NCBI RefSeq assembly: GCF_049075655.1 | Contig: NZ_CP157522.1 | Coordinates: 608,001 to 672,000, forward strand | DNA: 64,000 nt | Reading direction: 5' to 3' | Origin: Methanothermococcus sp. Ax23 | Lineage (GTDB): Archaea > AGJL01 > Methanococci > Methanococcales > Methanococcaceae | Shown here: positions 1 to 64,000 of the stretch, piece after piece | How the letters are laid out: every line of letters begins with the position of its first letter | Numbering within the stretch: the first letter of the stretch is position 1 | Notes under the pieces: model-generated | The model's input: the letters and a program-made list of their open reading frames with translations, nothing else | Database searches by the model: none | Told to the model about the DNA's origin: nothing | Position numbers and translations under genes: made by a program

Positions 1-603
1 AAGGAATTTGAAAAAAACCATGATATAAACAAAATAGTGGCAACAGGCTATGGAAGGCATAAATTATCCTTTGTAGATAAGGTAGTTCCAGAGGTCATAG
101 CACTTGGAAAGGGAGCTCACTATTTTTTTGAAGGAGCTCATGGAGTCATAGATATAGGAGGTCAGGACAGCAAAGTATTAAAAATAAATGATAAAGGGGA
201 TGTTTTGGATTTTATACTATCTGATAAATGTGCCGCAGGAACTGGAAAATTCTTAGAAAAATGTATCGATATTCTAAAAATAGATGACGATTTAAACGAC
301 TATAAATCAGACAATATAGCAAAAATATCTTCAATGTGTGCAGTCTTTGCAGAAAGTGAAATAATTTCCTTACTGTCTAAAAGAACCCCGAAGGAAGATA
401 TATTAATGGGAGTTTATGAGAGTATCTCAAACAGGATTGTTCCAATGGTCAATAAATTAAAGCTAAATAATATAGTATTTAGCGGCGGTGTTGCAAAAAA
501 CAGAGTGTTGATTGAACTTTTGGAAAAAAAATTAGATAAAAAGCTATTGGTTCCAGATGAACCCCAAATAGTTTGTTGCGTTGGTGCTGGTTTAATGGTT
601 TAA
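1..603 (+). CDS. CoA-substrate-specific enzyme activase (BadF/BadG/BcrA/BcrD ATPase family), 5'-truncated by window edge
   Basis: Motifs ATGYGR, IDIGGQDSK, DKCAAGTG, SMCAVFAESE, SGGVAKN; the frame is open back to base 1. Confidence 0.9.
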   Translation, partial: KEFEKNHDINKIVATGYGRHKLSFVDKVVPEVIALGKGAHYFFEGAHGVIDIGGQDSKVLKINDKGDVLDFILSDKCAAGTGKFLEKCIDILKIDDDLNDYKSDNIAKISSMCAVFAESEIISLLSKRTPKEDILMGVYESISNRIVPMVNKLKLNNIVFSGGVAKNRVLIELLEKKLDKKLLVPDEPQIVCCVGAGLMV

Positions 604-722
604 TGAACATTGTGATAAAAAATATAACCAAAACTTTATATTTTGCCAAACTATATAGTTTAAATGAGATGTTATATATTTTATATACTTATTAATTCAC
701 ACTTTGCTTTTTTGGTGTTAAA

Positions 723-2138
723 ATGGAATATATATCTAATTTAAAGAGAGCTGTTAAGACCCTTCGAAAAAACAGAAAAAACAATATATTGATATATACA
801 CATATAGATACTGATGGCATCACTTCGAGGGTGATTTTAGAGGAGCTCCTACACAGATTAAACATAGAGGCAGAATTTAGATTTTTAAAACAACTTGGTG
901 TTGATTCCATTGAAGATATTCCATTTAAGGACTATGATTTAATAATTTTTGCAGATTTGGGAAGTGGGCAGATTAATCTTATAAAAGAAAAAATGGAAGA
1001 ATACAACCTATTGGACAGAAAGGATAAAAATATAATCATTTTAGACCACCACATACCTGCAAATACGAATATTCCAGAAAATATAATAAATGTGAATCCT
1101 TGGAACAACAATATCGACGGAGGAAAGGAAATTTGCGGTGCTGGTGTGTCCTATTTATTTGCGAAAATGTGCAACCCCCGAAATATCGACTTGGCAAAAT
1201 ATGCCGTTCTTGGTGCAGTTGGAGATATTCAAAATTTAGAAGGCAAATTCACAGGATTTAATAGAATTATATTAAACGATGCGGTAGAGGCAGGGGACAT
1301 TGTAGCATTTCCAGACCTTCAATTTTACGGAAAGCACACAAAACCTATTTTTGCATCTATTAAGTATTTTACAGATGTTAGAACCGACTTGATGAACAAC
1401 GATTCAAGGATTATAAACTTTATAAACAATATAAATAGAAAATACAATTTAGACATTATACCAAAAGAAAGCCTATGCGATTTGTCCTTTGACGAAAAAA
1501 GGATTCTTGGAAGCGAATTTTTAAATAAATGCAATAGATATGTTCCTTCCAATTGGGCGAGATTTCTTCCAAAGGTAATATTCGGAGAAAGCTATGAATT
1601 TAAAAAGGAGGAGATAAAAACACCATTTAGAAATTTAGAGGAGTTTTCAACCTGCATAAATGCCTGTTCCAGATATGAAGATTATGAAACTCCCCTTAAA
1701 GTTTTAAAAGGAGATAGGGAAAAATATTACGATAAAATGAAATCACGACTAAATGCCCATAAAAGAAACCTTTCAAAATCACTCCAATATATAAAAGATA
1801 ATGTTGAAATAATCCAGAAAGACAAATTTCAATACTTTGAAGTGGAAAATGGCACAATAGAGGGAAGTATAATTGGGATTGTAGCTGGAATGAGCTATTC
1901 AATAGAAGAGGTAGATTGGAAAAAGCCCATATTTGCAATAGGGGAAATGGATAATGGTTATAAAGTATCTGCCAGATGTCCAAAGCTCTTATCATTTGCC
2001 GAAGACATAAACCTTGCCGATGCCATAAGCTACGCATCTAAAAAAGTTGGAGGAAGCGGTGGAGGGCATAAATTTGCCTGCGGTGCATATATTCCAGAAA
2101 AAAAGGATTTTATAAGGCATCTTGAAAACAAACTATAA
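723..2138 (+). CDS. recJ: RecJ-like DHH-family phosphoesterase/ssDNA exonuclease (DHH + DHHA1)
   Basis: HIDTDG, DLGSG, DHH, GAVGD and C-terminal GGGHKFACG motifs. Confidence 0.85.
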
Positions 2139-2209
2139 TTAAATTATAATTATTTTATAAAATTACTCAATCATAAAAATAAAAACTTAAAAGATTTAAA
2201 AGTGATTTT

Positions 2210-3487
2210 ATGTATAACAACGATAAATTTAAAAATACATTTAAAGAGGATACAAAATTTGCATCAAAGTATGAAATTGATGTAATTAATAGATTAACTG
2301 GTTTAAATTTTGATTATGATGATTTAATACTGCTTGAAAAACTTGCAGGGGATGATTACAGGAAAAGAATGTATTTAGATGAAAATACACAAATTGGAAT
2401 ACTTGAATTTGATTTAATTGATTTAGATTGGAAATTTACTCCGTCCCCTTATTATTATCAGTTGGTAGATGAAAAGAAAATAATACTAAAACCTACAAAA
2501 AGAAGATTAAAGGGGAAGTATTTAAAAGAAGAATATGTTGAAAATATTGACGAATACAAAAGTATAGTGGAAGATACGAACTATTTTGTCGGTATTGACA
2601 TAGGGACATTTTTAGGAGTTGGAATAAAAAGAAATGATAGAATAAAATTGAAGGACTTAAAAAGGAAAAAAGAAGAAATTAATATTAATAAAATAAACGA
2701 TTATTTAGAGAAAAACAAAAAAAGAATGGATTATCTTGTAAAATCATCAAAAAATATCCTTAAAAAATATATCAACAAATATAAAAACAAAGGGTATGTA
2801 ATAAATGTATCATTTAGTGGCGGAAAGGATAGTGCAGTTTCCACACTTTTGGCAAAAGAGATGATAGAGGATATTGATGTTTTATTTATCGACACAGGTT
2901 TGGAGTATCCTGAAACGATGAAATATGTTAAAGATTTTGCAAAAAAATACGATTTGAATCTGCACACTATAAACGGCGATTACTTTTGGGATGAATTGGA
3001 TAAAGAAGGTATTCCTACAAAAGATAACAGATGGTGCAATAGCGTTTGTAAGCTGATGCCATTGAAGAGCTTCTTTATGGAAAATTATCCAAATAAAAAA
3101 ATATTAACAATTGATGGTTCGAGAAAATTCGAGAGCTTTGCACGGGCAAATTTGGATTATACTAGAAAAAGTGGATTTATAGACTTTCAAACTAATGTAT
3201 TTCCAATACTTGATTGGAACGCTGTTGATGTGTGGAGTTATATTTATTTAAATGATGTTCTTTATAATCCAATGTATGATAAAGGGTTTGAAAGGATAGG
3301 GTGTTATATGTGCCCAGCCGCACTTAACAGCGAATTTTTAAGAGTAAGAGAGCTCCACCCAAACCTATGGGAAAGATGGGCAAACTATTTAAAAAAATAC
3401 TACTCAGAAGATGATATATTGAGGGGATTTTGGAGATGGGATGAGCTCCCTCCAAAGATGATAGAAATTAAGAAAAATTTAAAATAG
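2210..3487 (+). CDS. Phosphoadenosine phosphosulfate reductase family protein (PP-loop, Cys-containing)
   Basis: SFSGGKDS PP-loop, DTGLE, RWCNSVCK, RIGCYMCP. Confidence 0.85.
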   Translation: MYNNDKFKNTFKEDTKFASKYEIDVINRLTGLNFDYDDLILLEKLAGDDYRKRMYLDENTQIGILEFDLIDLDWKFTPSPYYYQLVDEKKIILKPTKRRLKGKYLKEEYVENIDEYKSIVEDTNYFVGIDIGTFLGVGIKRNDRIKLKDLKRKKEEININKINDYLEKNKKRMDYLVKSSKNILKKYINKYKNKGYVINVSFSGGKDSAVSTLLAKEMIEDIDVLFIDTGLEYPETMKYVKDFAKKYDLNLHTINGDYFWDELDKEGIPTKDNRWCNSVCKLMPLKSFFMENYPNKKILTIDGSRKFESFARANLDYTRKSGFIDFQTNVFPILDWNAVDVWSYIYLNDVLYNPMYDKGFERIGCYMCPAALNSEFLRVRELHPNLWERWANYLKKYYSEDDILRGFWRWDELPPKMIEIKKNLK

Positions 3488-3555
3488 AACAAAATAAATG
3501 TAATTAAAATAGATTAAATATAGCTAATAAAAATGATAATAATAAAGGTGATATT

Positions 3556-4323
3556 GTGGATAAAAAAATAACAATCGTTGGAGCTGGTCCCGGAGACCCT
3601 GAGTTGATAACATTAAAAGGAAAAAAAGCCATAGAAAACGCAGATATATTAATATATGCTGGCTCTCTTGTTAATAGGGAAGTTTTAAACTACAACAAAA
3701 AGAATGCAAAAATATACAACAGTGCAACAATGAACTTGGGAGAAATTATTGATGTAATTGTTGATGGTGTGGAAAAGGGCTTAAATGTTGTAAGGGTGCA
3801 TACGGGAGACCCATCCATATATGGAGCAATAAAAGAGCAAATTGATGAATTGAAAAAACATAATATAGATGTTGATATTATCCCAGGAGTCACTTCCTTA
3901 TTTGCAGCAACCAGTTCATTGAAGGCAGAATTAACTCTTCCAGAAGTCTCCCAAACTATAATAATTACAAGACCTGAGGGAAGAACTCCAAAACCTAAAA
4001 AAGAAAAAATAAAAGATTTGGCAAAACATCAAGCTACTATGGCAATATATTTAGGCGTTGGTATGATTGATAAGGTTGTAAATGATTTAATTGAGGGAGG
4101 ATATAATGAAGATACACCTGTTGCCGTAGTTTATCACGCATCATGGGAGGATGAGAAGATTATTAAAGGAGCTCTAAAAAATATATCCAATAAAGTTAAA
4201 AACGCAGGCATTACAAAAACGGCATTGATTATAGTAGGGGATGTTTTAGACCCAAAATACTATGAATATTCAAAATTATACGACAAAGATTTTGAGACAG
4301 AATATAGAAAGGTTAAACACTAA
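3556..4323 (+). CDS. cobM: Precorrin-4/cobalt-precorrin-4 C11-methyltransferase (CobM/CbiF)
   Basis: GAGPGDPELIT, YAGSLV, HTGDPSIYGA, ELTLPEVSQT; GTG start with GGTGA RBS. Confidence 0.93.
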   Translation: MDKKITIVGAGPGDPELITLKGKKAIENADILIYAGSLVNREVLNYNKKNAKIYNSATMNLGEIIDVIVDGVEKGLNVVRVHTGDPSIYGAIKEQIDELKKHNIDVDIIPGVTSLFAATSSLKAELTLPEVSQTIIITRPEGRTPKPKKEKIKDLAKHQATMAIYLGVGMIDKVVNDLIEGGYNEDTPVAVVYHASWEDEKIIKGALKNISNKVKNAGITKTALIIVGDVLDPKYYEYSKLYDKDFETEYRKVKH

Positions 4324-21237: not shown

Positions 21238-21346
21238 TGAATATATAATATAATAAAATACATAATATAGTATTACAATATAATATAAAAAGGGATTTTA
21301 TAACATTGGGAGCTCCCATAAATAATTATATAACATAAAAAAAGAG

Positions 21347-22210
21347 GTGAGCTCTACGAAGTGGGAAGTTACTTTTGACGGCATAACTTATGAATGCATC
21401 AATTGCGGATATTGTTGCAGTTGTAAAGATTGGAGAATATATTTATCATATTTTGATGCTTTGAAGTTAAAGGAATATGCAGAATATATTGAAAAGACAG
21501 AAGATATAAACGATTTAGGATTCAATAGACGATTGAAGATAAATGAGAGGGGATGCGTCCTTTTGAATAAAGACTATTTGTGCAATATCCAGATTAAAAA
21601 AGGATATGAATTTAAACCTGCCATGTGTAGATTATTTCCATTTAGTTTTATGGTCAAATGGAATGGAGATTTACTTTTAATAATTAAACATTACTGTAAT
21701 GGCATTAAAAAAGGAAAATGCGATGATAAAATAATTAAACATGCCATAGAATGCTGTGAAGAGCTATATCTTGATGAACTAAATAAAATAAGACTTATGG
21801 GCGTGGAATCTTCTGCAAAAACCAGATTGGATAACGATACATTAATCACATGGGAGGAGAGGGAAGAGCTCGGAAGGTATATTTTTGATAGTGGTAGTTT
21901 GGATGAGCTCTCTGAAAAATGTAGAGATATTTTAAAACTTGATATTTCCAACGACATATCAAATATATATAATAATATGAAAAAATTAAATCTCAGCAGC
22001 GAAATATTTATTAAAAATGAAGAAGAAATAATAAGATATTTAGGGGAACTTAATAAAAGGGAGCATTTTAGAAAACTAAATTTTAAAAAAGAAATATGTT
22101 ATTTAATAAATATCGGGAAAGAATTGAGCGGATATAGGAACATATTCAAAGGTGAGGGAATTATCGATTCAAAGATTTTAAATTATGGCATATACAACGA
22201 TATTTCGTGA
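21347..22210 (+). CDS. YkgJ family cysteine-cluster protein
   Basis: CINCGYCC, GCVLL, KPAMCRLFPF. Confidence 0.85.
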   Translation: MSSTKWEVTFDGITYECINCGYCCSCKDWRIYLSYFDALKLKEYAEYIEKTEDINDLGFNRRLKINERGCVLLNKDYLCNIQIKKGYEFKPAMCRLFPFSFMVKWNGDLLLIIKHYCNGIKKGKCDDKIIKHAIECCEELYLDELNKIRLMGVESSAKTRLDNDTLITWEEREELGRYIFDSGSLDELSEKCRDILKLDISNDISNIYNNMKKLNLSSEIFIKNEEEIIRYLGELNKREHFRKLNFKKEICYLINIGKELSGYRNIFKGEGIIDSKILNYGIYNDIS

Positions 22211-27737: not shown

Positions 27738-28856
27738 ATGAACAGAATAAATATAAACACCATCAAAATAAAGCCATTATTATCAGAACCTTCAAAATTA
27801 TCTGATGACGTTATGGCTTTAAAATATGTTATTATAGAACCTGCGGGATTTCCCATTAAAATAAATAGCGAGAACTTAAAAATCACTATTGACGACCCAA
27901 AATTATTCAACGTATATGCGAGAGAGCAGTGGGAAGGCGAGAGTGTAAAAGAAGGAGATTATTTATTCGATAACACAATTATTCCTGATTATGCATTTAA
28001 AGTAATCTCGACATACCCCAAAGAAGGAGGTATTATCACGCGAGACACTTTGTTTAAATTAAAAACAGCGAGAACCCACAACAGCAAAGAATTTAAAAAA
28101 GCAAGATTTGACGAAGTAATAGGTCAGGAAAATGCAAAGAAAAAATGTAAAATAATTATAAAATATCTCGAATGTCCAGAACTATTTGGAGAATGGGCAC
28201 CGAAAAATGTATTATTTTACGGACCCCCTGGAACCGGGAAAACACTTCTAGCAAGAGCTCTTGCAACTGAAACATATGTTCCACTTTATCTAATAAAGGC
28301 AACGGAGCTCATAGGGGAACATGTGGGCGATGGTTCAAAGCAAATTCAAGACCTATACAATAAAGCATTAAATGATAGACCATGTATTATATTTATAGAT
28401 GAGCTCGATGCCATAGCACTTAGTAGGCAGTATCAATCATTAAGGGGTGATGTCTCAGAGGTTGTAAATGCACTATTAACTGAGCTCGATGGAATACACG
28501 ATAATGAAGGAATTGTAACAATTGCAGCCACAAACAACCCTGAAATGCTTGACAATGCTATAAGGAGTAGATTTGAAGAAGAGATAAAATTCGAGCTCCC
28601 AAATGATGATGACAGGTTGAAAATTATGGAGCTCTACACAGAAAAGATGCCCATAAAAGTTAAGGCAAACTTGAAGAAATATGTTGAAAAAACAAAAGGT
28701 ATGAGTGGAAGGGATATAAAAGAAAAATTCTTAAAACCTGCACTTCACAAGGCGATATTAGAGGACAGAGGAGTCATTGAAGAAAAAGATTTAGATGATG
28801 CATTGAATAAATTACATGGAAATAAGAGAGAAATGCCTTTAAATCTATATGGATAA
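27738..28856 (+). CDS. AAA family ATPase (COG1223/AMA type)
   Basis: GPPGTGKT, IFIDELD, AATN, SRF; N-domain EPAGFP; WAPKNVLFYG. Confidence 0.88.
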   Translation: MNRININTIKIKPLLSEPSKLSDDVMALKYVIIEPAGFPIKINSENLKITIDDPKLFNVYAREQWEGESVKEGDYLFDNTIIPDYAFKVISTYPKEGGIITRDTLFKLKTARTHNSKEFKKARFDEVIGQENAKKKCKIIIKYLECPELFGEWAPKNVLFYGPPGTGKTLLARALATETYVPLYLIKATELIGEHVGDGSKQIQDLYNKALNDRPCIIFIDELDAIALSRQYQSLRGDVSEVVNALLTELDGIHDNEGIVTIAATNNPEMLDNAIRSRFEEEIKFELPNDDDRLKIMELYTEKMPIKVKANLKKYVEKTKGMSGRDIKEKFLKPALHKAILEDRGVIEEKDLDDALNKLHGNKREMPLNLYG

Positions 28857-28898: not shown

Positions 28899-31800
28899 TT
28901 ATCCCATTTTAAAGAAATCTTCTATTTTTACCTGCTTATTCTTATCATTTTCAAATAAATTATCTATCCCTTCTTTAATTAATTCCAATCTCTGTTTTAT
29001 GTAATCACTTGCGTTGTATTTTTCAGCCATTTTCTGAGAAACCTCCATATATTTTTCCACAGCTCCCTTTGAAACTGTTAATATCAATTTACTACCACAT
29101 TTTGGACATGTTCCTTTTAATGGTATTCTTCTGAATTTTGCACCACATTTACATCTTACCCCCTGCCTTGAAAATGCTCTTAAATTTCCAATTAAATCAG
29201 GGACGAAATGAGATTGAATTACCTTTTCAGCAACGTCTCTTTCATCAGTTGCCCTTATTTTTTTCGCAACAGCCAATTGAGCCTCTGTTTTTTCAAGCAT
29301 GGAACCTAATGTTTTATATGCACAAACTAATGGTCCAACATCAACACTTGAAGTTTCATGGGTATATCCAATACCTTCATATTGGGATGGCGTGCCCAAC
29401 CTATCCTCAACGGTTTCTATTAGCTGTTTAACCTCCTTAGGAGATGGCATTTCAAGTGTTTTTTCGTAGAATTCCAATGGATACTCCCAAACTGTATCCA
29501 TGTTATGAACTTCTCCATCAACTTCTTTTGGGTCAAGAAGTGTGGTTAATACAAGAGGTGCATCCATTTGCCCCCCTCTTTTATCTGGCAAAAATCGTTT
29601 GGAGAAGTTTAGAAATGCGTCTAAAAGCAAGAATATACCGTCTTCGTCCCCATCACATTGGTATGTTTGAATATTTGAATTTATAACTATATTGTGATAC
29701 TTCTTTGCATTTAGCGAATATACAAATTCATCCTCTGCCTTAACGATGGTTTTATTTCTAACTCTCACTATCCATCCATAACTGCAATCATTGGAATATA
29801 TTGTTCGTCGGTGTTTATGGAGTTCATACACATTCTGCTTTTTAGAAGATGTAAATCCAATTTCCTTAAAGAACATATGATAAAATATTGAAGTTATATT
29901 TAATGCATAAATCTTTGATATAGGAGCTCTTGTCCCTCTATTGTCATGATATTTTTTTACAATTCCATTTCTTTCATTTGCATTTTTATCAACTGTAATG
30001 TATGTTCTAATTCCATACTTTGCATTTAATAGAGTATCAACATCGAATAGCAATTCCTTATTTACACTATATACGCTTACTCTTGGCGTAGTTTTTAATG
30101 CTGTTCCATCCCCTGTGAAGTATGTTGAAAGCATCAATTTAACCTTTTCCTTTGGAAGTTTGAATATAAATGAAGGCACTCTTTTATTGTGTGCATTTGT
30201 TCCTGTCTTCAATATCTCAGTGAATAGCAAATATATTATTCTTGAACCAACGGTTATTTTTCCGTCTTTTTCATATATTCCAAACCCATCTCCAAATGCC
30301 TCATTTAATGCATCTTTAAGGTCTTTATTTACTTCCTCATCGTAATTTGAGAAGTTTATTTGATAAACGCTATTGGTCTTTCTTATGTAGCCCTCTGCTA
30401 AATAATAGCCAATTATTTTTAATAACGGTTCGATTTTAATAATTCTTTTTATATTTACCTTGTCCCGTCTTACTGCAATAAATACATCCTTTGGAATATC
30501 AGATATATCTAATTCTGCATTTTTTAATATTTTTAACAGTAAATTCAATGGTATTGTGTCTTGTTTTATATATTTGGTGATATTTTTAATCAGTTTTCCT
30601 TTTCCCTTTTCATCCCTTTCTTTTAAACAGTCCTTTGGAATATTATTTTTTATCCAATCAGCTATTCCTCTAATTCTTATGAGCTCCCATATATGTTTAT
30701 ATTCTTCCTTTGAGAGCTCCGCCAACAAATCAATATATTCGATATCCTCTTCCTCAAAATCCAATTTTGGAATTAACATTAAGTCGTTTTCTTCAATATC
30801 CATTGCATTCTTTTTTATAAATTTATCCTCTTTTTCATCATATATCATTACTGGATGGTCTGGCGTGGTTTCAAAACTTCTTCCTGTGTCGAGCTCTATA
30901 TTTATAAGATGATTTGGAGATGGTATTTTTAAAACTTCCTCAATATCCGTTAAAACCATTTTTTTATTTAATGTGTCGAAGGAATAAACCTTAATATTTA
31001 GATTATTTTTTGGTTTATTTTTAATATATGCCATATTTTCATAATACTCATTGTCATATAAATTGTAGAGCTCCTCAATTGTAATTCTTTTTACTTCCCC
31101 ATTGATATTTACCAATATACTTGTATTTGGTGGGAAGCAGTTTCTTCTCTTTGATGCGTGGAAATATGGGTGAGCATATCCAACATTTGCCTTACAATAT
31201 CCAATAATTCTACCTACCATTCCCGCAGAAGTGTGCGGAGCCATTCCTATTACTAAATGTCCTATTAAGTCCTCTTTATTCTTTACATTGTAAAATCTGT
31301 CTGTTTTATAGAATTTTTCAAGTAAATCATCAATAAACTTCGTTGCATTTACAAAATACTCTGCACAAGAATTTGGAATGATTACATCCTGCACTTTTAA
31401 TTCTATCACTTGATTTTCATCAGTTATAGGATTACCGTATATATCTTTATCATATCCTAATTCCTTCAATTTTTCAATGGAAACATTTATTTCACAAGGT
31501 TTAAAATGAGTAATAGGCACATCTGTGCAGTCAAACCTAAGGGTTCCATCCTTAAACACAAATACATCATTCATTGCCCTTAATATACCCTTTTCAAGTG
31601 GTTCAACTATTTTATCCTTTGAAGTCATACCTTTAATGCACTTTACATCGCCCGGTTTATTTATTTTTAGATTTTCTAATGCCTTATACCAATAATCCTT
31701 TAACGGGAGCTCTATCCTATTGGGTCCCGATAATTCCACATGAGCTCCACAAAATGGACATTTGTTATATAAACTTATTTTTCCACATTTTGGGCATTTT

Positions 31801-33830
31801 CCAGAATATACCTCTACTGTATCAGTTTTTCCTTCCTCTACTGCTTTATTTATTAATCTAACAACGTTACCTGCATTTCCTATTGGGAAAAGACCATTTA
31901 CTGGCGGCTTCATTTTTCTTGCAGCAGCTTTTTCAGGTCGCCCCATACGAGCTCCCACATAAACATAGGCATTTCTTTTAATCTCAAATGGTGATAGTAA
32001 ATTTATAAAGTGCATGGCATTTTTTGATTTATTATATATTTCCGTTATATCCTTTATTAAATCTTGATTTTTTTCAACATCGTATCCTAATGAGTATAAC
32101 AACGGATAATATTCATCTATTGATATATATTTATTGATATTATTATTTTCTTCCTTATTCAATACATTATGACAGCATCCTATTAACTCCAAAACTCTCT
32201 TTGCCTTTGTATTTTCCTCATACTTTGGATTGTATGGGATTAACCATGCGTCATTTTCTTCATCATAGTATCCATTCAATAGATAGTGTCTAAGCAACAA
32301 TATGTCTTCCTTTGATACATCATGCCAGTAGTAAGTATATCTTGGATGTAGTGGCGTTTCAGTTTCTATTGCAAATTTTACAGCTTCTTTATGGCTTGGA
32401 TTATTTATAAATTCCTTTTTATAACATATATTCTTTGAAATTAGTATTTTTTCATACCACTCCTCGCACCAACTGCTTGGAAGTATTGAGTGGTTGTTTT
32501 CAAGGAAATCTCCAAAATTAACTAAAATATCTCCTAAGAATAGTATCTCTTCCACAGAGTCCCTATATTCCAATGCCTTTTCAATTGTGTCTATTTTTAT
32601 TACATTTCCATTTTTTAATTTCACAATAGGCGGTTCTATGCTATCTACTGGGACAACACATGTTGCCTTTCCCGGTCTTTCAGTTTTTAACTGAGTTCCA
32701 ATAGCCATAAAGTCATCTACCAAATACATAAGTGCAGGATGGAATCCATCCGTTGCAAATCCTGTATTTCTGCTTCTCCCATACCTTAATCTAAACCCCC
32801 CTGCTTTTGAAGGATGGGCAAAAACTGGTCTTCCCGCAATTACTTCCCCTATAAACTTTGTAATTGCTTCGATTTCAACATCGTCGTATAATTTACTATA
32901 TTCTTCAAATTCTTCATCATCCACTTCATTGACTTCATCGTCTAAGTTTTCCTTTTCGTTTTCATTTCCTTTTTCATCTTTTTTGCCCTTTAACTCCTTT
33001 AACCAATCCCATCCTTCAATTCCAAGTTTATCAACGTGCCTTAAAATTTTTGGAGCTTTTAAAAGCACACCTTCAACAAGTGCAAGGAGAGCTCCCCCTC
33101 TTATCTGATTAGTTTCTACTCTATCTAAATCCCTATGTCCGCTGACTTCAACATCGTCTGTGGCTTCCCCTGTAATTTCTATTGATATATTTTTTACTGC
33201 TGTTCTTATTTCCTCAGCTTTTGGAGAATACTGAAAGCTACCTACTTCTGATTGATATAAATCAACCTCTTCTACATATCTTTCTATTTCATCATCATTA
33301 GGTAAATATCTATTTAATCCCATGTTTTTTCGGACATAATCACCAACAAGAACGGCTAGTGCCTGAGCTGTCCCTCCTGCACTTCTAATTGGTCCTGCAA
33401 AATATATTGCTAAATACTCACTTCCATCCTTGTTCTTTTTTATTTTAACATGGGCAATACCTTCAAGGGGAGCTGCCACAATTCCTTCTGTGATTATTGC
33501 TAAGGCTGTTCTTACAGCCTGTTCCGCCAGTTCTTCCCTATTTCCACTGTTTCCAAATTTTCCCTCAACTATTTCTTTTGCAATCTCCAATGCAGCAGGT
33601 TCTTTACCGAGCTCAGAAACTAACTCCCTAATTCTCTCAGACACTCCTTTTGGACCTACAAGCCCTTCAACTCTATCTGCCATATCCTTCGCAAGTGGAA
33701 TTTCTACAAAATCAGATACATCATATCCTTTTTTTCTACACTCTTCCGCAATATTGTAAATTTCCTTAACATTCTCTAAAATATTTTTAAAATAAGATTC
33801 CATATTCTTAGAGGAGCTCACATGAAACAT
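28899..33830 (-). CDS. polC: DNA polymerase II (PolD) large subunit DP2, containing one intein
   Basis: [31 protein letters not shown]|CDGDED catalytic motif split by intein, RGGQMDAPL. Confidence 0.97.
29658..31139 (-). mobile_element. Intein in DP2 (494 aa) with LAGLIDADG endonuclease and C-terminal Gln
   Basis: Starts CFPPNT after KRRN; block B TTPDHP; LAGLIDADG-like IGYYLAEG and STYFTGDG; ends NIQTYQ before CDGDED. Confidence 0.92.
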
Positions 33831-33943: not shown

Positions 33944-34192
33944 TATGGGCATGAGGACTATAGCCCGCCTTCTGTAATTTCGGCGACATTCAGCTAAGCG
34001 CTAAATGCTTGCACCCGTGCAGAATGGCCTCGTTTCACCGGCTCCTTGAAACTCCTCAATTTTCATATCATAGTCATCTGTTTCAAGGCCGTGTCGTTTC
34101 TATACACCATTCAATCCTTCTCAGGATATTATGCACATAATGGGTGGGCGGAGCTTCCTCCTAAATGGGAGTCGCCAGTCCTCTTGCCCATA
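33944..34192 (-). ncRNA. rnpB: RNase P RNA (archaeal type M)
   Basis: P1 ends TATGGGCAAGAGGACT/AGTCCTCATGCCCATA; conserved GAGGAAGCTCCGCCC and ACAGAAGGCGGGCTATA (P4). Confidence 0.93.
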
Positions 34193-34252: not shown

Positions 34253-34371
34253 TGGCTAACGGCGTCACCCTGTTCCCACCGAAAGGCAGTACTTAGGGTA
34301 TCGCTGGAGGGCTTAATTTCCGAGATCGGAACGGGATCGGATGTGGCACCTCCGCTATGACCGTTATGCCA
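34253..34371 (-). rRNA. rrf: 5S rRNA
   Basis: ACGGTCATAGCGG...CCGATCCCGTTCCGATCTCGGAAATTAAGC...; complementary ends. Confidence 0.95.
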
Positions 34372-34386
34372 GAAAAAATAAAGCGG

Positions 34387-37434
<3,048 letters not shown>

Positions 37435-37494
37435 ACAACCATCATCTTAAATCAGGTTTCAGTTCATAACCCGTGAGGATTATGAACCTCGTTA

Positions 37495-37567
<73 letters not shown>

Positions 37568-37614
37568 AATCCTCAGCCCGCAACCATTTAGTGCTTAGTA
37601 ACGACCTTTTTTTC

Positions 37615-39085
<1,471 letters not shown>

Positions 39086-53887: not shown

Positions 53888-56850
53888 TTATAAGATTATA
53901 TTTTTTAGCACATTTTCTGGATTTTCTTGATATTGCCTAATTAAATTCCCTACGCTATTTATGTCCCGTATGTTATTTTTAATGGCATATTTAAGCACTT
54001 CTATTCTATTCAATCTATCCTCTATGAGCTCATCCCGTGATACACCTGCAATATTGCAAACCTGTTCTTCCCACATACATATTCCATCTTTTTTAATTTC
54101 ATCAGATATACCATCATATTTAAAAAGGCTCGTTTTTGAGATATCCTCTCCAGCCCCGCTAATTTCTATAACATTTAATACCCTTCTCACGGTTTTTCTA
54201 TTTCTTTTAATTCGCTGCTGGTTTATAATAAAATCCAGGGATGAAATCATAACTTCTGGAACGTTCATCGGGGGATTCATTAGTCTAATCATTGCCTCAT
54301 CTGCACTATTTGCGTGAAGTGTCCCGGAACAGTTTGAAATGATAAATCCACCATACTTGCCTGCAATGTATGTGTGGTTATCTTCAACTGTTAAATCATA
54401 AATATGTCCATTGTATTCAATTTCTTCAACACTTACAACCTTATCCCAATATATGTCTGAATTTGCTAATATTTTTAAGTTTTCAGCATTTAATATTTCT
54501 GCTATTTTATTTAACTTCGTTCTCGAAGGGTCTCTTACACCTGTTTCATAAGCCCTGATTAAACTTCTGGTTTTTAATCCAAGTTTCTCAGCTAATTCTT
54601 GCTGTGTTAATTTATTATTTAATCGATAATATTTTATCAATTTTCCGATATTTGGTATAATATCTAGGGAATTTTTGGATTTAAGTAGTATGTTATTTAA
54701 CTTTTCATGTTTTGTATGGTGTGTAAATCCGATATGTTTCCAGTATTTCCATATGTTATCATATCCACCAATGGTTATTTTATAATATGGATTTATATTT
54801 CCTTTTCCATCCTTTTCTTGAGCTGAAACATGGGATATAATCCCAAATCTTAGCAATAAATATGGAAGGGCAATTGCAAGATTTTTGTTTGATGTTACAA
54901 ATTCAATACGCCTTGTAGTTTCATTTATATGGCCATCAGAATCAAATAATCCTTGTATAAATTCTGATAAATCATCGTTTGATAACAATACCTCTATTGG
55001 AATACTAAATGATTTTGTTTTATTTCCAATTGGGATATATTTTGAAAGTTTACTGACTGATTCTACCCCATACACTTTGGCTTTTGTGTGGTTGTTATAT
55101 TTTAAACAAACAACATCTCCATAATCACTCATTTCACTTGAAACTTTTTCAATTACATCGCTATTTTGATTTATAAAGTCAATACAATATTTGCTTAAAT
55201 GATCATCGCCCAATAAAGCACCAATTAAATATGGATTTTCAATATATTTACCATCTTTGGTTTTCAATTCTCGTGGAAGTGCAATGTAATCATTAATTTT
55301 AACCATTTCCGCATTTATCTCAAATATTTTATTATTTAATATATACATAGGATGGTCATGAGTAAGAATTATTTCCTTACCGCTTTTTGTTTTTATTTTT
55401 ATCATCTTTCCAGAGTATTCTTTTCTCCAAACTCTTGATATTAATTTATCTTCAATTTTTAGGGTGCTTTTGTTAAAACTTTTAATAAATATATTCTCAT
55501 TAGATACGTCAATCCATTCAAATCCATTACTTTCTTTTACTTTCATTAAATCATATTTCTCAAAAAATTTATCAACAAATTCTCCTATGTTTATGATGTG
55601 TCCGTTAGATAAATAAATGGGTTCATCTTCCACTAATGCACCATCATGACCTGTATTCATAGCAACTAAAAGAGAATGGGCTTCCTCACCTCTAACCTCC
55701 CCTACAAATATTCTATCTGGTCTCATCCTTAAAGCATTTTTAATTAAATCATCCATTGTGACTTCATACTCTGGAATTCCAGGTCTTGGAGGTCTTGTAA
55801 TCATTTTTATTACATGCTCATGAGGGATTTGCAATTCGGGAGTGTCCTCAATAGTTACAATCCTGTCGGAATACATGGAAAACATTGAAATAACATTAAG
55901 AGTTGTGGTTTTCCCTGAACCAGTTCCTCCCACAATCAGCGTATTTGCAGGTTTTGCTCCGAAGTATCCTTCAACGGCCTGCCATATGAATGCTGCAAGT
56001 TCAAGGTCAAAAGTTTTGTATTTAATTAAATCAACAACCGTCAGCGGGTCAGCTGAAAATTTACGAATGGTTAGGGTGCTGCCATTCAATGTAACATCCT
56101 GTGTTGTGGCATTGACCCTACTACCATCGGGTAAAAACGCATCTAACATCGGTGTCCTGGAGTCTATCGTTCTTCCAGCAAGTAGGGCAATATTTTCAAT
56201 AATTCTAGTTAATTCACTGTTATTAATTACAATATTTGTCTTACACATTTGGTATTTTCTATGGAATACAAAAGTGGGTCGGTTAATTCCATTTACCATG
56301 ATTTCTTCTAGATTATCATCATGTAATGGAACTTCTAAGAATCCAAGTTTTCCTATTATTAAATAAAAATATTTAGCTAAATTTTGAATTTCAATATTTT
56401 TGAGATTCAGGCCATTCTTTTCAGAATAATTTAGTAAATACCCTTGGATTTCTTCAATTTTTTGAAAGCCGCCTTCGGAGATATCAGATTTTATCTCAGA
56501 TATATTTTCCTCAGAAAGCTTGGAAAGCGCATCGATTATCTGGCTAACCTCAGGAATGTTATAATATATTCGCCCATCCTTTTTTTCTATAAGGATATTG
56601 AACACAACGCCATCGATTTTTAAAAAATAATTGTCAATTACATTTGGAGATATGATTTTAATATTTTGAATATTTTGATGAGTGGATTTATCGTTGAAGG
56701 GGAATTTTCGAGTTTCACTACTTGGAGCAAGACCTCTAAGAGGTGCACTAGGCTCAGTTTTTACTGTCTCTTTTTCTAGTTTTTCAGTTTTTTTTTAGGT
56801 TCTGGAGTAGGTTTAATATCTTTGTTTTTAATTCTATCAAAAAGACCCAT
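53888..56850 (-). CDS. Type IV pilus assembly ATPase (VirB11/KlbA-like) with intein; frameshifted at an A9 run (56788-56796)
   Basis: GGTGSGKTT, TIED, LRMRPDRIFVGEVRG, MNTGHDG|CSGTLHA; upstream ATG at 56850 (MGLFDRIK, GGGGCG RBS) is one base out of frame with the 53888-56605 ORF. Confidence 0.88.
54332..55639 (-). mobile_element. KlbA-type class 2 intein (436 aa, Ala1) with LAGLIDADG endonuclease and XRE-family HTH
   Basis: Starts ALVEDEPI after GHDG; block B LTHDHP; GALLGDD and QGLFDSDG; ends IISN before CSGTLH. Confidence 0.92.
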
Positions 56851-56877: not shown

Positions 56878-59346
56878 TTATAAGGTTACATCAATGTCCA
56901 AATGCTCTGTTAATTCTTTGTATCTATTTCTAATAGTTACCTCTGTAACGCCTGCAACATCTGCAACTTCTCTCTGGGTTCTTCTAGTGCCATGCAGAAC
57001 ACTTGCAATATATATTGCAGCAGCTGCAACTCCTGTTGGTCCCCTACCACTTGTTAAACCTTTTTCATTGGCTTTTTGAAGTATTGCAATGGCTTTTGAT
57101 TCTACCTCCCCAGGTAATTTAAGTTCTGATGCAAATCTTGGCACATAATCTATTGGATTTGTTGGAGCAAGCCTTATTTTCAATTCTCTTGAAATAAATC
57201 TGTATGTTCTTCCGATTTCTTTTCTATCTACTCTGGATATTTCTGCAATTTCGTCAAGGGTTCTTGGAACTTTACATCTTCTACATGCGGCATACAGAGC
57301 TGCGGCAGCCACCCCCTCAATACTTCTACCTCTGATTAATCCTTTTTCTACGGCACCCCTATATAGAACTGCGGCGTTTTCCCTAACATTTCTTGGGAGA
57401 CCTAATTTTGAAGCTATTCTATCCAATTCAGAGAGAGCAAATGCTAAGTTTCTTTCGGAAGCATCTGAAACCCTTATTCTTCTTTGCCATTTTCTTAATC
57501 TATATAGCTGAGCTCTCCTATCTGCTGAAATATCCTTTCCATAACTATCTTTATTTCTCCAATCTATTACTGTGGATAATCCTTTATCGTGTATGGTGTT
57601 ATGAAGAACAAATGCTCCATAACCAGCAACGAAGTTTTCAGCATTTGGAACTGTTAAATCGTAAGCATACCCATTTGTTGGTTTTGTTTTTTCAATCTTC
57701 TTAATTTTTAAGAATATAAAATCAGAGCTCGCAAGTTTTTCCAATTTCTTATCATTATATTTTTTTGCAATGTTCAATGCAAGAGCTCTACTTATTCTTT
57801 TTCTGTCTCTACATTTCCATTCTTTTTTATACTCAGCAGGTGCAGGAATTAACTCTTCAATAGGCGGTTTTTTATTTTCTTTGCTGTAATTTTCAATATA
57901 TCCTAATTTTACTATATGCTTAGGATTTGTAATTCTTAACATATAGGCATCTGAATCCTTTATATGCTGACCATTTAACTCATGACCTTTGATGAGCTCA
58001 TAGTTATAATTTGAATTTATGCCCAATTGAAGCAATAGCATCATTAAATCATTTATTAATTCCTTTGATGAAGAAACCGCAGTTAATTGAATTGTGCTGT
58101 ATTTTTTGTTTGTATATAAATTTCCATCGCCGTTGAAGTATCCTTTTAAAAACTCTATTTTTAAGTTTTTAGGCAATAAGTAGATAATAGATGGAACTCT
58201 TTTTTCCTTTGCACCAGATTTAATACCCAAGGCTTTAAACAATTCCACAAAGACTTTATTTGTAATTTCGATTTGAACTGCGGATTTGTTGCTGTTTTTA
58301 AGATATAATTTAGGTTTAATTCCAAATTTTTTGAAGAATGAAACAACTTCATCGATATATTCCGTTTCATGTTTTCCAAATGAAAATACCAATCTATTAT
58401 CTGTATAATGTCCTTCGGCAATATAATAACCTAATATTTTAGCAAATGTTTCATCTATCTTTAATTTTGATGGTATTTTTAATCCAGAGCCATACCTAAC
58501 AGTTGCAAACTCTGGAACTTCAATTTTTGAATTTATCACATATTCAACTGGTGCGGATTGTCTCTTTTTCCAACTACTGTTTTCATAAGGATAATTGAAT
58601 TGAATATAGCATCCTTTCAGCAACTTCGATAGGTCTAATTCAATATTATATTCAACATTTGGCAATCTTTTTGCAAGCACTAAATAATCCCCTTCTCTGA
58701 GCTCATCTACTCTGGTTTCTACAACTTCACCATCTTTAAGTGCGAATACGCTGTGGCTTCCAGTGGTTTTTATGTGCTTATTTCCTTCAACAACTATATT
58801 ATACACAGAATTTACAGGATGCCTCGAAACCTCGGATACATTCATATAGCTAAATTTATAATCGCTATCGAATGCTACCACTTCTAAATTTTTATCTTCA
58901 ATATTGGCGATTTCCAAAATGCCCTCTTTTCTAATATTTTTCGAGTTTTCGATATATCTGTCAATTAACTCCCCAATTTTTACAATTTTTACATTTCCAT
59001 TTTCTTTAATTATTATCGGCTCGTTGTAATCTACACTATATGTCATCGGAGCTCCGACCCTACTTCTTTTAACTCTCTGCTCATGGTCAAATGCTCTCCA
59101 TTCAGGACCTACATCAAATAAATTCTGCTGTAAAACACATCCACAATCTGCACAGACGATTTCAGCCCTTTCGTAATCTTTAATAACATTTTTGCTTCCA
59201 CAGATTGGGCAAACTAACTCTTCTTCTTTTTCAATAATAACATTTTTAGAGGAATCTTCATTAATTGGTGGTCTTTCCATTATTTTTTTTTCTTCTTTTT
59301 TTGTTTCTTCGCTATTTTTTTGTTTTGACACTAATTTCATTTCCAT
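56878..59346 (-). CDS. tfb: Transcription initiation factor IIB, containing one intein
   Basis: CPICG...CADCG Zn ribbon, GPEWRAF, cyclin repeats RGRSIE and [16 protein letters not shown]. Confidence 0.97.
57598..59037 (-). mobile_element. Intein in TFB (480 aa, Ser1, His-Asn end, Thr+1) with LAGLIDADG endonuclease
   Basis: GAPMTY|SVDYNEP; TTGSHS; [16 protein letters not shown]; YDLTV...VLHN|TIHDKGL. Confidence 0.93.
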
Positions 59347-60135: not shown

Positions 60136-61413
60136 ATGGATTATTTAGAAATCGGTTATGTACCAAAGGATAATGAACTACTTTCATGCATGGTAGTAAA
60201 AGCTGAAAACCTTGAAAAGGCGGCAAATGATATTGCAGGTGAGAGCTCCATAGGAACATGGACTGAATTAAAAACAATGAAAAGCGAGGTATATGAAAAA
60301 CTCAGACCAAGAGTATATGAAATAAAGGAGATTGGAAGTGAGGGGAACAATAAAATTGGATTGGTAAAAATAGCTTATCCATTGGATGATTTTGAGCCAA
60401 ACAACATGCCGGGAACTCTTGCAGGAATAGCAGGAAATATTTTTGGAATGAAATCTCTAAAAGGATTAAGAATATTGGATTTTAGGTTCCCAAAGGAATT
60501 TATAGATTGTTATTCTGGACCAAAATATGGGATAGATGGAATAAGAAACCTATTGAATGTTAAGGAAAGACCATTGGTTGGAACAATAGTTAAGCCAAAA
60601 GTTGGGTTAAATTCCGAAGAACATGCAAAAGTGGCATATAATTCATGGGCAGGCGGTTGCGATATAGTAAAGGATGATGAAAACCTTGTTTCACAGAATT
60701 TTAATAAATTTGAAGATAGATTGTATAAGGTATTGGAATACAGGGATAAAGCAGAGTCTGAAACTGGTGAAAAGAAAATATACATGCCAAACATCACTGC
60801 ATCGTATAGGGAAATGGTAAGAAGAGCTGAGCTCGTAGAGGATGCAAAATGTGAGTATGCCATGATTGATGTTGTGGTGCTTGGGTTTTCAGCAGTTCAG
60901 CAGATTAGAGAGGAAGGTTTTGATTTTGTAATTCATGCCCACAGGGCAATGCATGCGGCTATTACTCGTTCCAAAGAATGGGGCATATCAATGCTTGCAC
61001 TTGCAAAAATATACAGATTATTGGGTGTTGACCAACTTCATATTGGGACAGTTGTTGGAAAGATGGAAGGGGTAAAAGAGGAGGTATGCAGTATAAGGGA
61101 TGAAATAGTGTTGGAGGATGTTGAAAAAGATGATAAATATAAGTTCTTTGACCAGAAATGGTATGGATTAAATAATGTATTTCCAGTATCATCAGGAGGG
61201 GTTTATCCTAAATTAGTTCCAGAAATTGTGAATATCTTTGGAAATGATGTAATTATTCAGGCAGGCGGAGGTATTCACGGACATCCAGATGGCACAGTTG
61301 CAGGAGCTCGGGCAATGAGGGCATCAATTGAGGCAGCTGCTGAGGGCATCCCACTAAATGAAAAAGCGGAAGAAGTTCCAGAACTTAAAAAGGCATTAGA
61401 ATATTGGAAATAA
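60136..61413 (+). CDS. rbcL: Form III RuBisCO large subunit
   Basis: AGESSIGTW, KPKVGL, GCDIVKDDE, HAHRAMH, GTVVGKMEG, SSGG, GGGIHGHP. Confidence 0.95.
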   Translation: MDYLEIGYVPKDNELLSCMVVKAENLEKAANDIAGESSIGTWTELKTMKSEVYEKLRPRVYEIKEIGSEGNNKIGLVKIAYPLDDFEPNNMPGTLAGIAGNIFGMKSLKGLRILDFRFPKEFIDCYSGPKYGIDGIRNLLNVKERPLVGTIVKPKVGLNSEEHAKVAYNSWAGGCDIVKDDENLVSQNFNKFEDRLYKVLEYRDKAESETGEKKIYMPNITASYREMVRRAELVEDAKCEYAMIDVVVLGFSAVQQIREEGFDFVIHAHRAMHAAITRSKEWGISMLALAKIYRLLGVDQLHIGTVVGKMEGVKEEVCSIRDEIVLEDVEKDDKYKFFDQKWYGLNNVFPVSSGGVYPKLVPEIVNIFGNDVIIQAGGGIHGHPDGTVAGARAMRASIEAAAEGIPLNEKAEEVPELKKALEYWK

Positions 61414-61480
61414 TTTTTATTTATTTTAATTATAATTTTTTAATAAATCGTTTTTTGTAAATTTATTATGCGGTGGTATA

Positions 61481-63208
61481 TTGGGTTCAGGTGATAAAAG
61501 CGAAATTGATAACTTGTGTGATAAAGGTTTATATGATGAGGCAGTTCGTTTAGCTAAAAATAAGAAAGGGAGTAAATCAAAATCTTTACTTAAAATAGTT
61601 AAACATTTGTGTAGTAGTATGTTATACGATAAAGCAATCCAAGTGGCTAATGACATACCTGCTAATAATTATAAATACGCATCACTATTTGAAATATCTA
61701 AATCTTTATATATCAAAGGTATGTACGATAAAGCAATCCAAGTGGCTAATAAGATACCCGATAAGAACTATAAGATGGATATATTATCCAAAATATCTAA
61801 AATATCCAAATGCAAATATGATGAAGCATTAAAGTTATGTGAAGAGGGGTTATACGATAAAGCACTTCAAGTGGCTAGTGAAATTCCCAATAAAGAATAT
61901 AAATCTGAGACATTATCTAAGCTATCAAAATGTATGTATGATGATATATTAAAGTTATGTGGGGAAAGAGCGTATAATAAAGCAATCCAATTAGCTAATA
62001 AAATACCCAATAAAGAGCATAAACTTGAATCATTATTTAAAATATCAAAATGTATGTATAATAATACATTAAGATTATGTGATAAGGAATTATACGATAG
62101 GGCAATTCAAGTAGCCATTAAAATACCTAATAATGATTATAAATCTAAATCACTATCTAAAATATCAGAATCTTTATGTAATAAAGGACTATCTGACAAA
62201 GCAATCCAAGTGGTTAATAAGATACCTAATAATGATTATAAATCTAAATCACTATTTAAGATATCTCAATCTTTATGTGATAAGGAATTATACGATAGGG
62301 CAATTCAAGTAGCCATTAAAATACCTAATAATGATTATAAATCTAAATCACTATCTAAAATATCAGAATCTTTATATAATAAAGGATTATATAGTAGGTC
62401 TATCCAAATTGCTAATAAAATACCGCATGAAAGTCATAGATATGAAACTTTAATTAAAATGTCTGAATTTTTATATTGTAATGGATTATATGACGAAGCT
62501 ATTCAGGTGGCTAATGAGCTTAATGAAAAATCTAAATTTGAACTTCTGTTTAAAATATCGGAATCTTTATGTAATTGTGAATTATCTAATAAAACAACAT
62601 TAATATATGATAAAGTTATTCAGGCATCTGCTGAATTATCTAATGAACTGAATAGGTCTAAAATTGTATTTAAAATATCGGAATCTTTATGTAATAATAA
62701 ATTATATGATAAAGCTATCCAAATAGTTGGCAATATATCAAGCACATATTACAAATCGAAATCATTGTTTAAAATATCAGAATCTTTATGCAATAATGAA
62801 ATGTATGATAAAGCCATCCAAGTGGCTGATAAAATATATGATTACAATTACAAAATCAAAGCATTATTGGTAATAGCAGAATCCCAATATAAAAATGGAT
62901 TGACTAACAAATCAATGAATATATATGATAAAGCTATCCAAGTAGCTAATGCAAAACCAAAACTCTTATTGACCATAGCAGAATCATTATACAACATTGG
63001 ATTAACCAATAAGGCAGAATCTTTATATGATAAAGCCATATACATTGCTAAAAATAAGCTTAATGAGGATGTTAAATTTGAAATTATGGAGGATATTGGG
63101 AAATCACTAAACAAGGTGGGATTAACTAGTAAAGCAGAGCAATTAGCCAATGAAATCCCTAAAAGAACTAAAACCGAAAAATTCAATTTATCAGACTATT
63201 TTAATTAA
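61481..63208 (+). CDS. Alpha-solenoid (TPR-like) tandem repeat protein
   Basis: Many ~33-aa repeats of LYDKAIQVANKIPxxxYKSxxLxKISESLC. Confidence 0.8.
   Translation: MGSGDKSEIDNLCDKGLYDEAVRLAKNKKGSKSKSLLKIVKHLCSSMLYDKAIQVANDIPANNYKYASLFEISKSLYIKGMYDKAIQVANKIPDKNYKMDILSKISKISKCKYDEALKLCEEGLYDKALQVASEIPNKEYKSETLSKLSKCMYDDILKLCGERAYNKAIQLANKIPNKEHKLESLFKISKCMYNNTLRLCDKELYDRAIQVAIKIPNNDYKSKSLSKISESLCNKGLSDKAIQVVNKIPNNDYKSKSLFKISQSLCDKELYDRAIQVAIKIPNNDYKSKSLSKISESLYNKGLYSRSIQIANKIPHESHRYETLIKMSEFLYCNGLYDEAIQVANELNEKSKFELLFKISESLCNCELSNKTTLIYDKVIQASAELSNELNRSKIVFKISESLCNNKLYDKAIQIVGNISSTYYKSKSLFKISESLCNNEMYDKAIQVADKIYDYNYKIKALLVIAESQYKNGLTNKSMNIYDKAIQVANAKPKLLLTIAESLYNIGLTNKAESLYDKAIYIAKNKLNEDVKFEIMEDIGKSLNKVGLTSKAEQLANEIPKRTKTEKFNLSDYFN
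62075..62375 (+). repeat. Exact 103-bp direct repeat (62075-62177 and 62273-62375) inside the solenoid gene
   Basis: Identical TTATGTGATAAGGAATTATACGATAGG...CAGAATCTTTAT; offset 198 bp equals two repeat units. Confidence 0.9.
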
Positions 63209-63329
63209 CTAGAATTAATATTTTATTTTAAAGATTTATAGTATATTCAATTTTATACCTTCTTATTTTCGTTATTAATTTATATTATAAGATGATACTC
63301 TTTTAATCAAAATAATTTAGGAGATTAAA

Positions 63330-64000
63330 ATGGATGCCGTAGAAGTGTTGGAAAATTCAATTAAAGCATATAAATTAACAACAAAATATCATGGAAATTA
63401 TACTGATTTAAAGAGAGCTCTGTTTTTAGGATGGTATTGTAATTTAACAGAACCTTGCAAATTTTGCTACATGTCATCCCAAAAGCCGAAAATAAAAGAC
63501 CCAAAATCTGCAAGAAGAAGAATTGAAACCATACTTGCAGAGGCAATATTGATGAAAAGAATAGGCTGGAAATTGGAGTTTATCTCTGGCGGCTATGGAT
63601 ATACTGTGGAGGAATTAAATGATATACTTGAAATGGTTTCCTATGTTCAAAAATCAAAACAGTATTTAAATGTTGGAATAGTGGATTTTGAGAACTTGAA
63701 TTTAGATGTAATTGAGGGAGTAGTTGGGGCAATTGAAACAGTAAATGCGGAGCTCCACAACTACCTATGCCCGCAAAAACCAATTGATAAAACAAAGGAA
63801 ATGCTTTTAAGAGCTAAGGATTACAATTTAAAAACTGGAATTACTATAATATTGGGCATGGGTGAAAAAGAAGAGGATATTGAAAAACTTTTAAATTTAA
63901 TTGAAGAGCTTGATTTAGATAGAATTACATTTTATTCATTAAATCCGCAAAAAGACACAATATTTGAGGGAAAACCGTCCATTACCACATTAGAATATAT
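63330..64000 (+). CDS. hcgA: Radical SAM protein HcgA/HmdB (FeGP cofactor biosynthesis), 3'-truncated by window edge
   Basis: Not in the ORF track; my translation MDAVEVLENSIKAY...RALFLGWYCNLTEPCKFCYM has the CX5CX2C motif typical of HcgA; GGAG RBS. Confidence 0.85.
   Translation, partial: MDAVEVLENSIKAYKLTTKYHGNYTDLKRALFLGWYCNLTEPCKFCYMSSQKPKIKDPKSARRRIETILAEAILMKRIGWKLEFISGGYGYTVEELNDILEMVSYVQKSKQYLNVGIVDFENLNLDVIEGVVGAIETVNAELHNYLCPQKPIDKTKEMLLRAKDYNLKTGITIILGMGEKEEDIEKLLNLIEELDLDRITFYSLNPQKDTIFEGKPSITTLEY

Follow-up and report, generated by a model that had tools for sequence, protein, structure and literature searches.

The hexamer GAGCTC is a genuine highly iterated palindrome (HIP) of one Methanothermococcus-centred group of genomes, here recognized in a 64,000-nucleotide stretch of Methanothermococcus sp. 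Ax23 DNA (the window; G000:C1:608001-672000, G000 being the Ax23 genome of 1.67 Mb and 31.9% GC in the two contigs C1 and C2). Neither a repeat element nor a peptide motif nor codon usage accounts for GAGCTC, and very probably it represents a real HIP-like element under a directional force. The window contains 86 copies, against a mean of 4.46 and a maximum of 10 in dinucleotide-preserving shuffles, none of which (0 of 100) reached 86; the initial annotation of the window had counted about 85 with 4-5 expected, in good agreement with these figures. Genome-wide, 2,089 copies are present (2,085 on C1 and 4 on C2), on average about one per 800 bp, and the observed/expected ratio (O/E) ranges from 16.7 based on base composition to 19.7 under a first-order Markov model, which ranks GAGCTC at the top of all hexamers. 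The tetramer AGCT has an O/E of only 1.17 and the other 15 NAGCTN words lie at 0.5-1.2, as opposed to 19.7 for GAGCTC, so that a bias for AGCT, one of the objections the initial annotation had raised against itself, does not explain the excess. The 26-mer surroundings are distinct for 2,077 of the 2,085 sites on C1, and the sites are therefore not a dispersed repeat. Their placement is near-Poisson (variance/mean of 1.2 in 5-kb bins, slightly over-dispersed), with a small excess of spacings of 21-50 bp (117 compared to 75 expected).

The excess is found in every reading frame and in every compartment. Open reading frames (ORFs) were called from ATG starts at a minimum of 90 aa, yielding 1,525 ORFs that cover 83% of C1, and synonymous codons were then shuffled within each gene (n=30), which preserves protein sequence and codon usage and is conservative in that the codon pool includes the codons of the GAGCTC sites themselves. 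Coding GAGCTC occurred 1,895 times against 187 ± 10 in the shuffled genes (maximum 207); a ratio near 1 under a codon- and dipeptide-preserving shuffle, the other objection considered in the initial annotation, was not found. Glu-Leu is written GAG-CTC in 1,069 of 3,842 cases where 65 were expected, and 1,069 of the 2,742 CTC codons of G000 are preceded by GAG. On C1, 191 sites lie outside ORFs, and those within ORFs divide into 1,069 (frame 0), about 605 (frame 1) and 220 (frame 2); in the window, 42, 25 and 9 sites occupy frames 0, 1 and 2, respectively, and 10 lie outside called ORFs. O/E values are similar for coding (16.5-18.3) and non-coding DNA (16.8-27.6). The idea that GAGCTC is a by-product of composition, codon usage, dipeptides, AGCT bias or a dispersed repeat finds some support in the O/E of merely 1.6 under a fourth-order Markov model; however, this value is low because most GAGCT and AGCTC pentamers sit within GAGCTC sites. 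As the dinucleotide and synonymous-codon shuffles already refute a composition or codon by-product, AGCT is close to expectation, the excess extends to non-coding DNA, the flanks are distinct and close relatives of similar base composition possess just 9-115 sites, the probability of such an origin is practically nil.

The force favours the exact hexamer over its neighbour words wherever DNA has long been resident, in all frames, in non-coding DNA and also on C2, which, at 7.7 kb and 27% GC, carries four sites and is likewise enriched. In contrast, mobile and recently acquired DNA as well as the rRNA genes are out of its reach. Fifty multi-copy genes (insertion sequences (IS)/TnpB and similar) contain three sites in 34.4 kb, compared to 1.39 per kb elsewhere, and the biggest site gaps of G000 coincide with low-GC strain-variable gene clusters and a type III restriction-modification locus. 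The 16S and 23S rRNA genes (4.5 kb) have one site where about one would be expected from base composition by our own arithmetic, indicating no enrichment under strong constraint. No correlation was observed between the codon-bias axis and site density (rho -0.035). Two nearly GAGCTC-free and genome-variable regions, G000:C1:113848-124946 and 1342927-1355393, are low-GC (26-27%) clusters of genes of about 350-430 aa, which look like exchangeable surface-glycan-type gene clusters. GATC (O/E 0.03), GTAC, GGCC, GCGC, CTAG, ACGT and all CTNNAG and GTNNAC hexamers are strongly avoided in G000, which points to a long restriction-modification pressure; unlike a restriction target, which is avoided in its host, GAGCTC is enriched there.

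To place the signal among relatives, sites were counted in 38 Methanococcales genomes. Five of these are enriched, namely G000 (2,089), G012 (2,070), G010 (1,645), G013 (1,515) and G003 (1,321), and most of the 38 genomes have 49-229 sites. Particularly low counts were obtained for G005 (14), G008 (9), G002 (16) and G015 (26). In G005, AGCT as such is avoided (O/E 0.12), which explains its GAGCTC deficit; G002 and G008 likewise have few copies of AAGCTT (29 and 33, respectively) compared to 286-450 in G012 and G013. Judged by protein identities rather than by a tree, the lineages with low counts are probably nested within the enriched group: the GatE proteins of the enriched genomes are nearest to that of G000 (95, 90, 82 and 79%), with those of G008 and G002 at about 78-80%, and for two other proteins G008 and G002 (75-78%) are closer to G000 than are G013 (69-75%) and G010 (64-69%, by tblastn). 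The word itself also varies. The octamer GGAGCTCC accounts for 1,259 of the 1,645 sites of G010 (octamer O/E 307), and at non-coding sites the preceding position (-1) is a G in 92% of cases in G010 and in 35% in G000, as opposed to a background of 12-13%; the variants are thus graded dialects. Separately, CTGCAG occurs 366 times in the 1.2 Mb of G005 (O/E 4.8) and is strongly depleted in G000 (18 copies); it may be a milder enriched palindrome of another lineage or a TGCA-rich codon effect.

Comparison of close relatives suggests that the force can be switched on and off. For cyanobacterial HIP1, the codons that make up the motif are better conserved within it than elsewhere, the test applied in PMC5861425, and the same is true of GAGCTC. 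Across 51 orthologue pairs drawn from 80 kb of G000 and G012, in-frame GAGCTC was kept in 38 of 48 cases, while outside sites GAG survived in 131 of 250 cases and CTC in 16 of 52, or about 16% for both together; the preferred codon pair GAATTA was kept in 11 of 23. When G000, G003 and G012 were aligned over about 36 kb, 62 positions were informative, with 24 sites present in all three genomes, 14 in G000 and G012, 8 in G000 and G003, 8 in G000 only, 5 in G012 only, 2 in G003 only and 1 in G003 and G012. G000 keeps 38 of the 39 sites inferred to be ancestral (found in G012 and in G000, G003 or both) and G003 keeps 25. Four-fold degenerate positions place G012 as the outgroup, with similar numbers of lineage-specific changes in G000 (225) and G003 (188) among 2,174, and by a rough estimate the site loss in G003 is about that predicted from how GAG and CTC decay elsewhere. 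The ratio of the decay products GAGTTC and GAACTC to intact sites is highest in G003 (0.34), followed by G000 (0.22), G010 (0.20) and G012 (0.17). Unequal retention at similar branch lengths, together with these ratios, suggests that the force is active in G000 and G012 and has relaxed in G003. These data support the proposal of the initial annotation that a HIP1-like, frame-independent excess is made or kept by an active process, as coding and non-coding DNA show the same excess, the sites persist in spite of codon preference and lineages appear to differ in whether the force acts. Over the longer distance between G000 and G010, positional conservation had a ratio of 1.95, inside the range of ordinary codon pairs (1.3-5.3), and could be dismissed as a signal; sharing at background level indicates that density rather than particular positions is kept.

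The force not only overrides codon preference but even alters amino acids. The dipeptide Glu-Leu is over-represented in G000 (O/E 1.21) and G010 (1.27) and not in G005 (0.91), and its reverse, Leu-Glu, shows the opposite trend (0.89, 0.86 and 1.06, respectively). Similarly, the tripeptides [GR]A[LPHQR] have an O/E of 1.85 in G000, 2.11 in G010 and 1.26 in G005, and 606 of the 844 such tripeptides in G000 (72%) are encoded through GAGCTC, which illustrates how a force at the sequence level can be strong enough to change proteins. Among 797 reciprocal-best orthologues of G000 and G005, Glu-Leu persists in G005, written with other codons, at 363 of the 656 positions of frame-0 sites (control 52%). 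For the other frames, conservation in G005 is lower at site peptides than at non-site controls (frame 1, 46% compared to 61%; frame 2, 30% compared to 43%). Synonymous recoding and amino-acid replacement thus both give rise to sites.

What could exert such a force was approached through gene content. One candidate is methyltransferase-coupled repair, named already in the initial annotation, here in the very-short-patch form proposed for cyanobacterial HIPs: an orphan methyltransferase would mark GAGCTC, and a mismatch nickase or glycosylase would repair near-sites towards it. HIPs reportedly go together with cognate methyltransferases, 18 of the 29 single-step differences that separate close genomes fall on the central C/G, and among six DNA-methyltransferase candidates in G000 there is L012, a 300-aa beta-class N4/N6 enzyme. 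However, no C5 methyltransferase (PF00145) above cut-off was found in G000, G003, G010 or G012, and the distribution of L012 and L002, the two Type II-like candidates, misfits the trait, with homologues of L012 only in G003 and baseline g5 genomes and those of L002 only in G003. The five enriched genomes share no protein of the families PF01555, PF02384 or PF02086, and the single plausible DNA methyltransferase of G010 does not occur in G000. Taken together, searches with these four families and a motif-IV scan of G000 found no cognate methyltransferase co-occurring with GAGCTC. Vsr was found in none of the 40 Methanococcales genomes searched (0/40, controls positive). In addition, central C/G transitions between G000 and G012 are rarer within sites than the same changes outside, hence suppressed and not elevated. 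The motifs given in the part of the single-molecule real-time (SMRT) methylome report on M. aeolicus PL15/Hp available to us are CTAG, GTNAC, GCACY, CGAG and ACGT only, none of which contains GAGCTC (PMC10113651), although SMRT sequencing misses 5-methylcytosine (m5C) and PL15/Hp itself is not known to be GAGCTC-enriched. Among the mechanisms listed in the initial annotation, which also included an uptake or recombination signal and a chromosome-organising protein, repair coupled to methylation is the one thereby weakened, as no methyltransferase distribution matches the enrichment, and we regard it as improbable. The RE_SacI profile (PF09566) had no match in the 38 genomes, but control sequences were likewise silent. 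A Dam-like (PF02086) methyltransferase is split into frames of 206 and 81 aa at G003:C69:3568-4327 and intact (287 aa) in G012; G000 was not searched for it.

A second kind of modification was suggested by a gene cluster outside the window, at G000:C1:1537329-1542521, which encodes a DUF6884/DpdC-like protein, a UvrD-type AddA-like helicase, a PD-(D/E)XK nuclease and the 7-deazaguanine DNA transglycosylase DpdA (NF041059, 426.6 bits; cut-off 200). A mark of this type on GAGCTC, with selection for many marked sites, would fit the presence of bona fide DpdA in three of the five enriched genomes as opposed to one of the 35 others, the failure to find it in the decaying G003 and the richness of the cluster itself in sites (17 GAGCTC in 5.2 kb). 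Among the 40 genomes, the cluster was detected in G000, G013, G010 and the baseline genome G028 (130 sites) only, and not in G012, a genome of 99% completeness with 2,070 sites and the lowest ratio of decay products; moreover, related genomes are non-independent samples. The cluster, an imperfect correlate, was therefore rejected as the driver, because G012 maintains its sites without a detected copy, and a deazaguanine mark is very unlikely to be the cause. Subtraction of gene content (present in G000 and G010, not in G005) left 306 candidates, a noisy set at a G005 coverage of 80%, and a synteny filter reduced these to 23, which consisted of IS/TnpB copies, small metabolic genes and the Dpd cluster. 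Two more candidates, of 288 aa with a zinc ribbon and of 481 aa, turned out to be core genes that are present also in the non-enriched G002 and G008.

Alternatively, GAGCTC might be a binding or recognition site selected for its density, for a nucleoid or SMC-type organiser or as a Chi-like signal for end resection that, being palindromic, would act in both directions. The even spread at about one site per 800 bp and the maintenance of density rather than position would be in line with this, as would the AddA-like helicase-nuclease that adjoins DpdA in G000, G010 and G013. Yet that same cluster was not found in the site-maintaining G012, the spacing is slightly over-dispersed (variance/mean 1.2) and not regular, and the enrichment of C2 is not predicted by a chromosome organiser. 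In addition, known Chi and architectural words are enriched far below GAGCTC. We consider sites selected for density unlikely.

The best explanation overall, which we hold with moderate confidence, is a HIP-type element produced by a lineage-specific, switchable and sequence-directed force with a recombination-linked agent. The agent would be a protein, probably dimeric, that recognises a specific DNA sequence and whose preference translates into allele bias through recombination, either since site-bearing DNA is preferentially taken up and recombined, as with DNA uptake sequences, or by biased gene conversion or repair within the cell. Relatives of this group are competent. Action through recombination, by uptake or conversion bias, rather than through DNA modification appears somewhat probable; it is favoured over methylation-coupled mismatch repair because the modification route failed all gene-level tests that were run, from which we infer the recombination-linked one. 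The uptake version specifically is less probable than not. In its fullest form, which should be regarded as speculative, GAGCTC may be an archaeal watermark that resembles HIPs and DNA uptake sequences but needs no DNA methylation. A dimeric protein reading (G)GAGCTC(C) would bias recombination (uptake, or conversion between the multiple chromosome copies) so strongly that thousands of codons are rewritten and the proteome shifts; this reader would evolve dialects and could be lost, leaving sites to neutral decay, and AGCT-avoiding sister lineages would erase the watermark.

Several points weigh against an explanation of this kind. The gene searches yielded no uptake receptor, nuclease or binding protein tied to GAGCTC. 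A hexamer is a weak uptake discriminator, and known uptake sequences are longer and non-palindromic. Selection and biased conversion leave identical footprints and are therefore inseparable by the tests used here, and GAGCTC may carry m5C or another modification. The on/off pattern is derived from 36 kb of three-way alignment, in which G003 is a metagenome-assembled genome of 90% completeness. Finally, sharing between G000 and G010 is at the level of codon pairs, and nothing shows a position-specific function.

Comparison with known systems is instructive in this respect. Like cyanobacterial HIP1 (GCGATCGC) and alternate HIPs, GAGCTC is a short GC-rich palindrome that occurs about once per kb, whatever the reading frame and in non-coding DNA as well; both have lineage-specific variants and exceptions, and neither has an agreed function. 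Unlike HIP1, the archaeal element has six letters, or eight in one lineage, and no cognate methyltransferase was found for it. HIP1 also has a reported periodicity; GAGCTC was examined by 5-kb bins, which are near-Poisson, and by next-neighbour spacing only. DNA uptake sequences (DUS) of Neisseriaceae and uptake signal sequences (USS) of Pasteurellaceae are non-palindromic words of 9-12 bp with a known receptor. GAGCTC resembles them in its density, in its occurrence in all frames with effects on proteins, in being dense in the core genome and scarce in recently acquired DNA, in its dialects and in an accumulation that would be by drive and not by position-specific function. It differs from them as a palindromic hexamer, and the likeness is one of sequence pattern. 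Very-short-patch repair by Dcm/Vsr at CCWGG in E. coli also raises the count of a short palindrome, but only slightly; the shared feature is a repair bias that lifts such a count, and the difference lies in the small enrichment there, the failure to find Vsr in the 40 genomes and the lack of a C5 methylase in G000. HIP1 itself has been proposed as a methylation-dependent uptake signal, as stated in PMC13756078, and a term search of the text of a HIP paper (PMC4390886) returned no mention of archaea or of GAGCTC. We likewise found no literature description of an uptake sequence for Methanococcus; nor, supplements of the cited papers aside, of the GAGCTC excess in Methanococcales, for which the initial annotation was not aware of any.

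HIP1 has gone unexplained for three decades, and GAGCTC provides an independent archaeal case that apparently lacks the cognate methyltransferase usually suspected. Five enriched relatives, one octamer dialect and close relatives that avoid AGCT form a useful set, and G003, in which the force appears relaxed, would amount to a natural knock-out. Which process writes a word thousands of times can thus be tested in culturable methanogens as well as by comparing genomes.

In the window, the 86 sites extend from 113 to 63755 and start at positions 113, 134, 843, 3350, 3443, 4169, 4642, 6924, 9623, 10104, 10535, 10683, 10778, 11143, 11260, 11413, 11805, 12286, 13277, 13755, 13827, 15419, 16310, 17374, 17569, 17726, 19789, 20027, 20768, 21310, 21349, 21866, 21905, 23331, 23963, 25003, 25111, 26191, 27020, 28255, 28305, 28401, 28482, 28593, 28629, 29924, 30681, 30714, 30891, 31068, 31707, 31742, 31949, 33089, 33609, 33814, 35736, 39195, 39916, 41213, 42823, 43057, 43677, 47205, 48449, 48543, 50176, 50966, 51240, 51417, 51478, 51573, 54026, 57510, 57725, 57783, 57994, 58699, 59049, 59525, 59739, 60243, 60829, 61304, 63415 and 63750. 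The examples by which the initial annotation had illustrated all three frames and an intergenic copy were verified. At 843..848 (+), GAG CTC encodes Glu-Leu in frame 0 of the ORF 723-2138 (a DHH/DHHA1 protein), is kept in G012 and reads GAACTC in G003. The frame-1 site 4169..4174 (+; xGA GCT Cxx) occurs in G000 only, and GCACTT in G012 and GAACTT in G003 let it read as a gain by at least two changes. The site at 21349 is in frame 2, provided that the GTG start at 21347 is used, and the intergenic site 21310..21315 lies inside TGGGAGCTCCCA (21307-21318) and corresponds to AAGCTT in G012. Six copies, as had been noted, are located in the gene of a PRS2-type AAA ATPase (27738-28856; sites within 28255..28634, +, at 28255, 28305, 28401, 28482, 28593 and 28629), four of which are common to both G012 and G003. 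The site 29924..29929 (-) in the PolD DP2 gene is confined to G000, with GAATTT in both G012 and G003, indicating three changes on the G000 branch. The sole site in the 16S and 23S rRNA genes, 35736..35741 (-; 23S at 34421-37400), is conserved in G012 and G003. Four sites (57725, 57783, 57994 and 58699; 57725..58704, -) are located in the intein-bearing part of the TFB gene, which does not align with G012.

Inteins with a LAGLIDADG domain interrupt three housekeeping genes of the window, all on the minus strand, encoding PolD DP2 (28899-33830), a T2SSE-type ATPase (53888-56605) and TFB (56878-59346); the intein region of the ATPase also matches HTH_3. The gene for the archaeal RNase P RNA (33949-34187, -) adjoins the 5S-23S-tRNA-16S rRNA operon (34254-39085).

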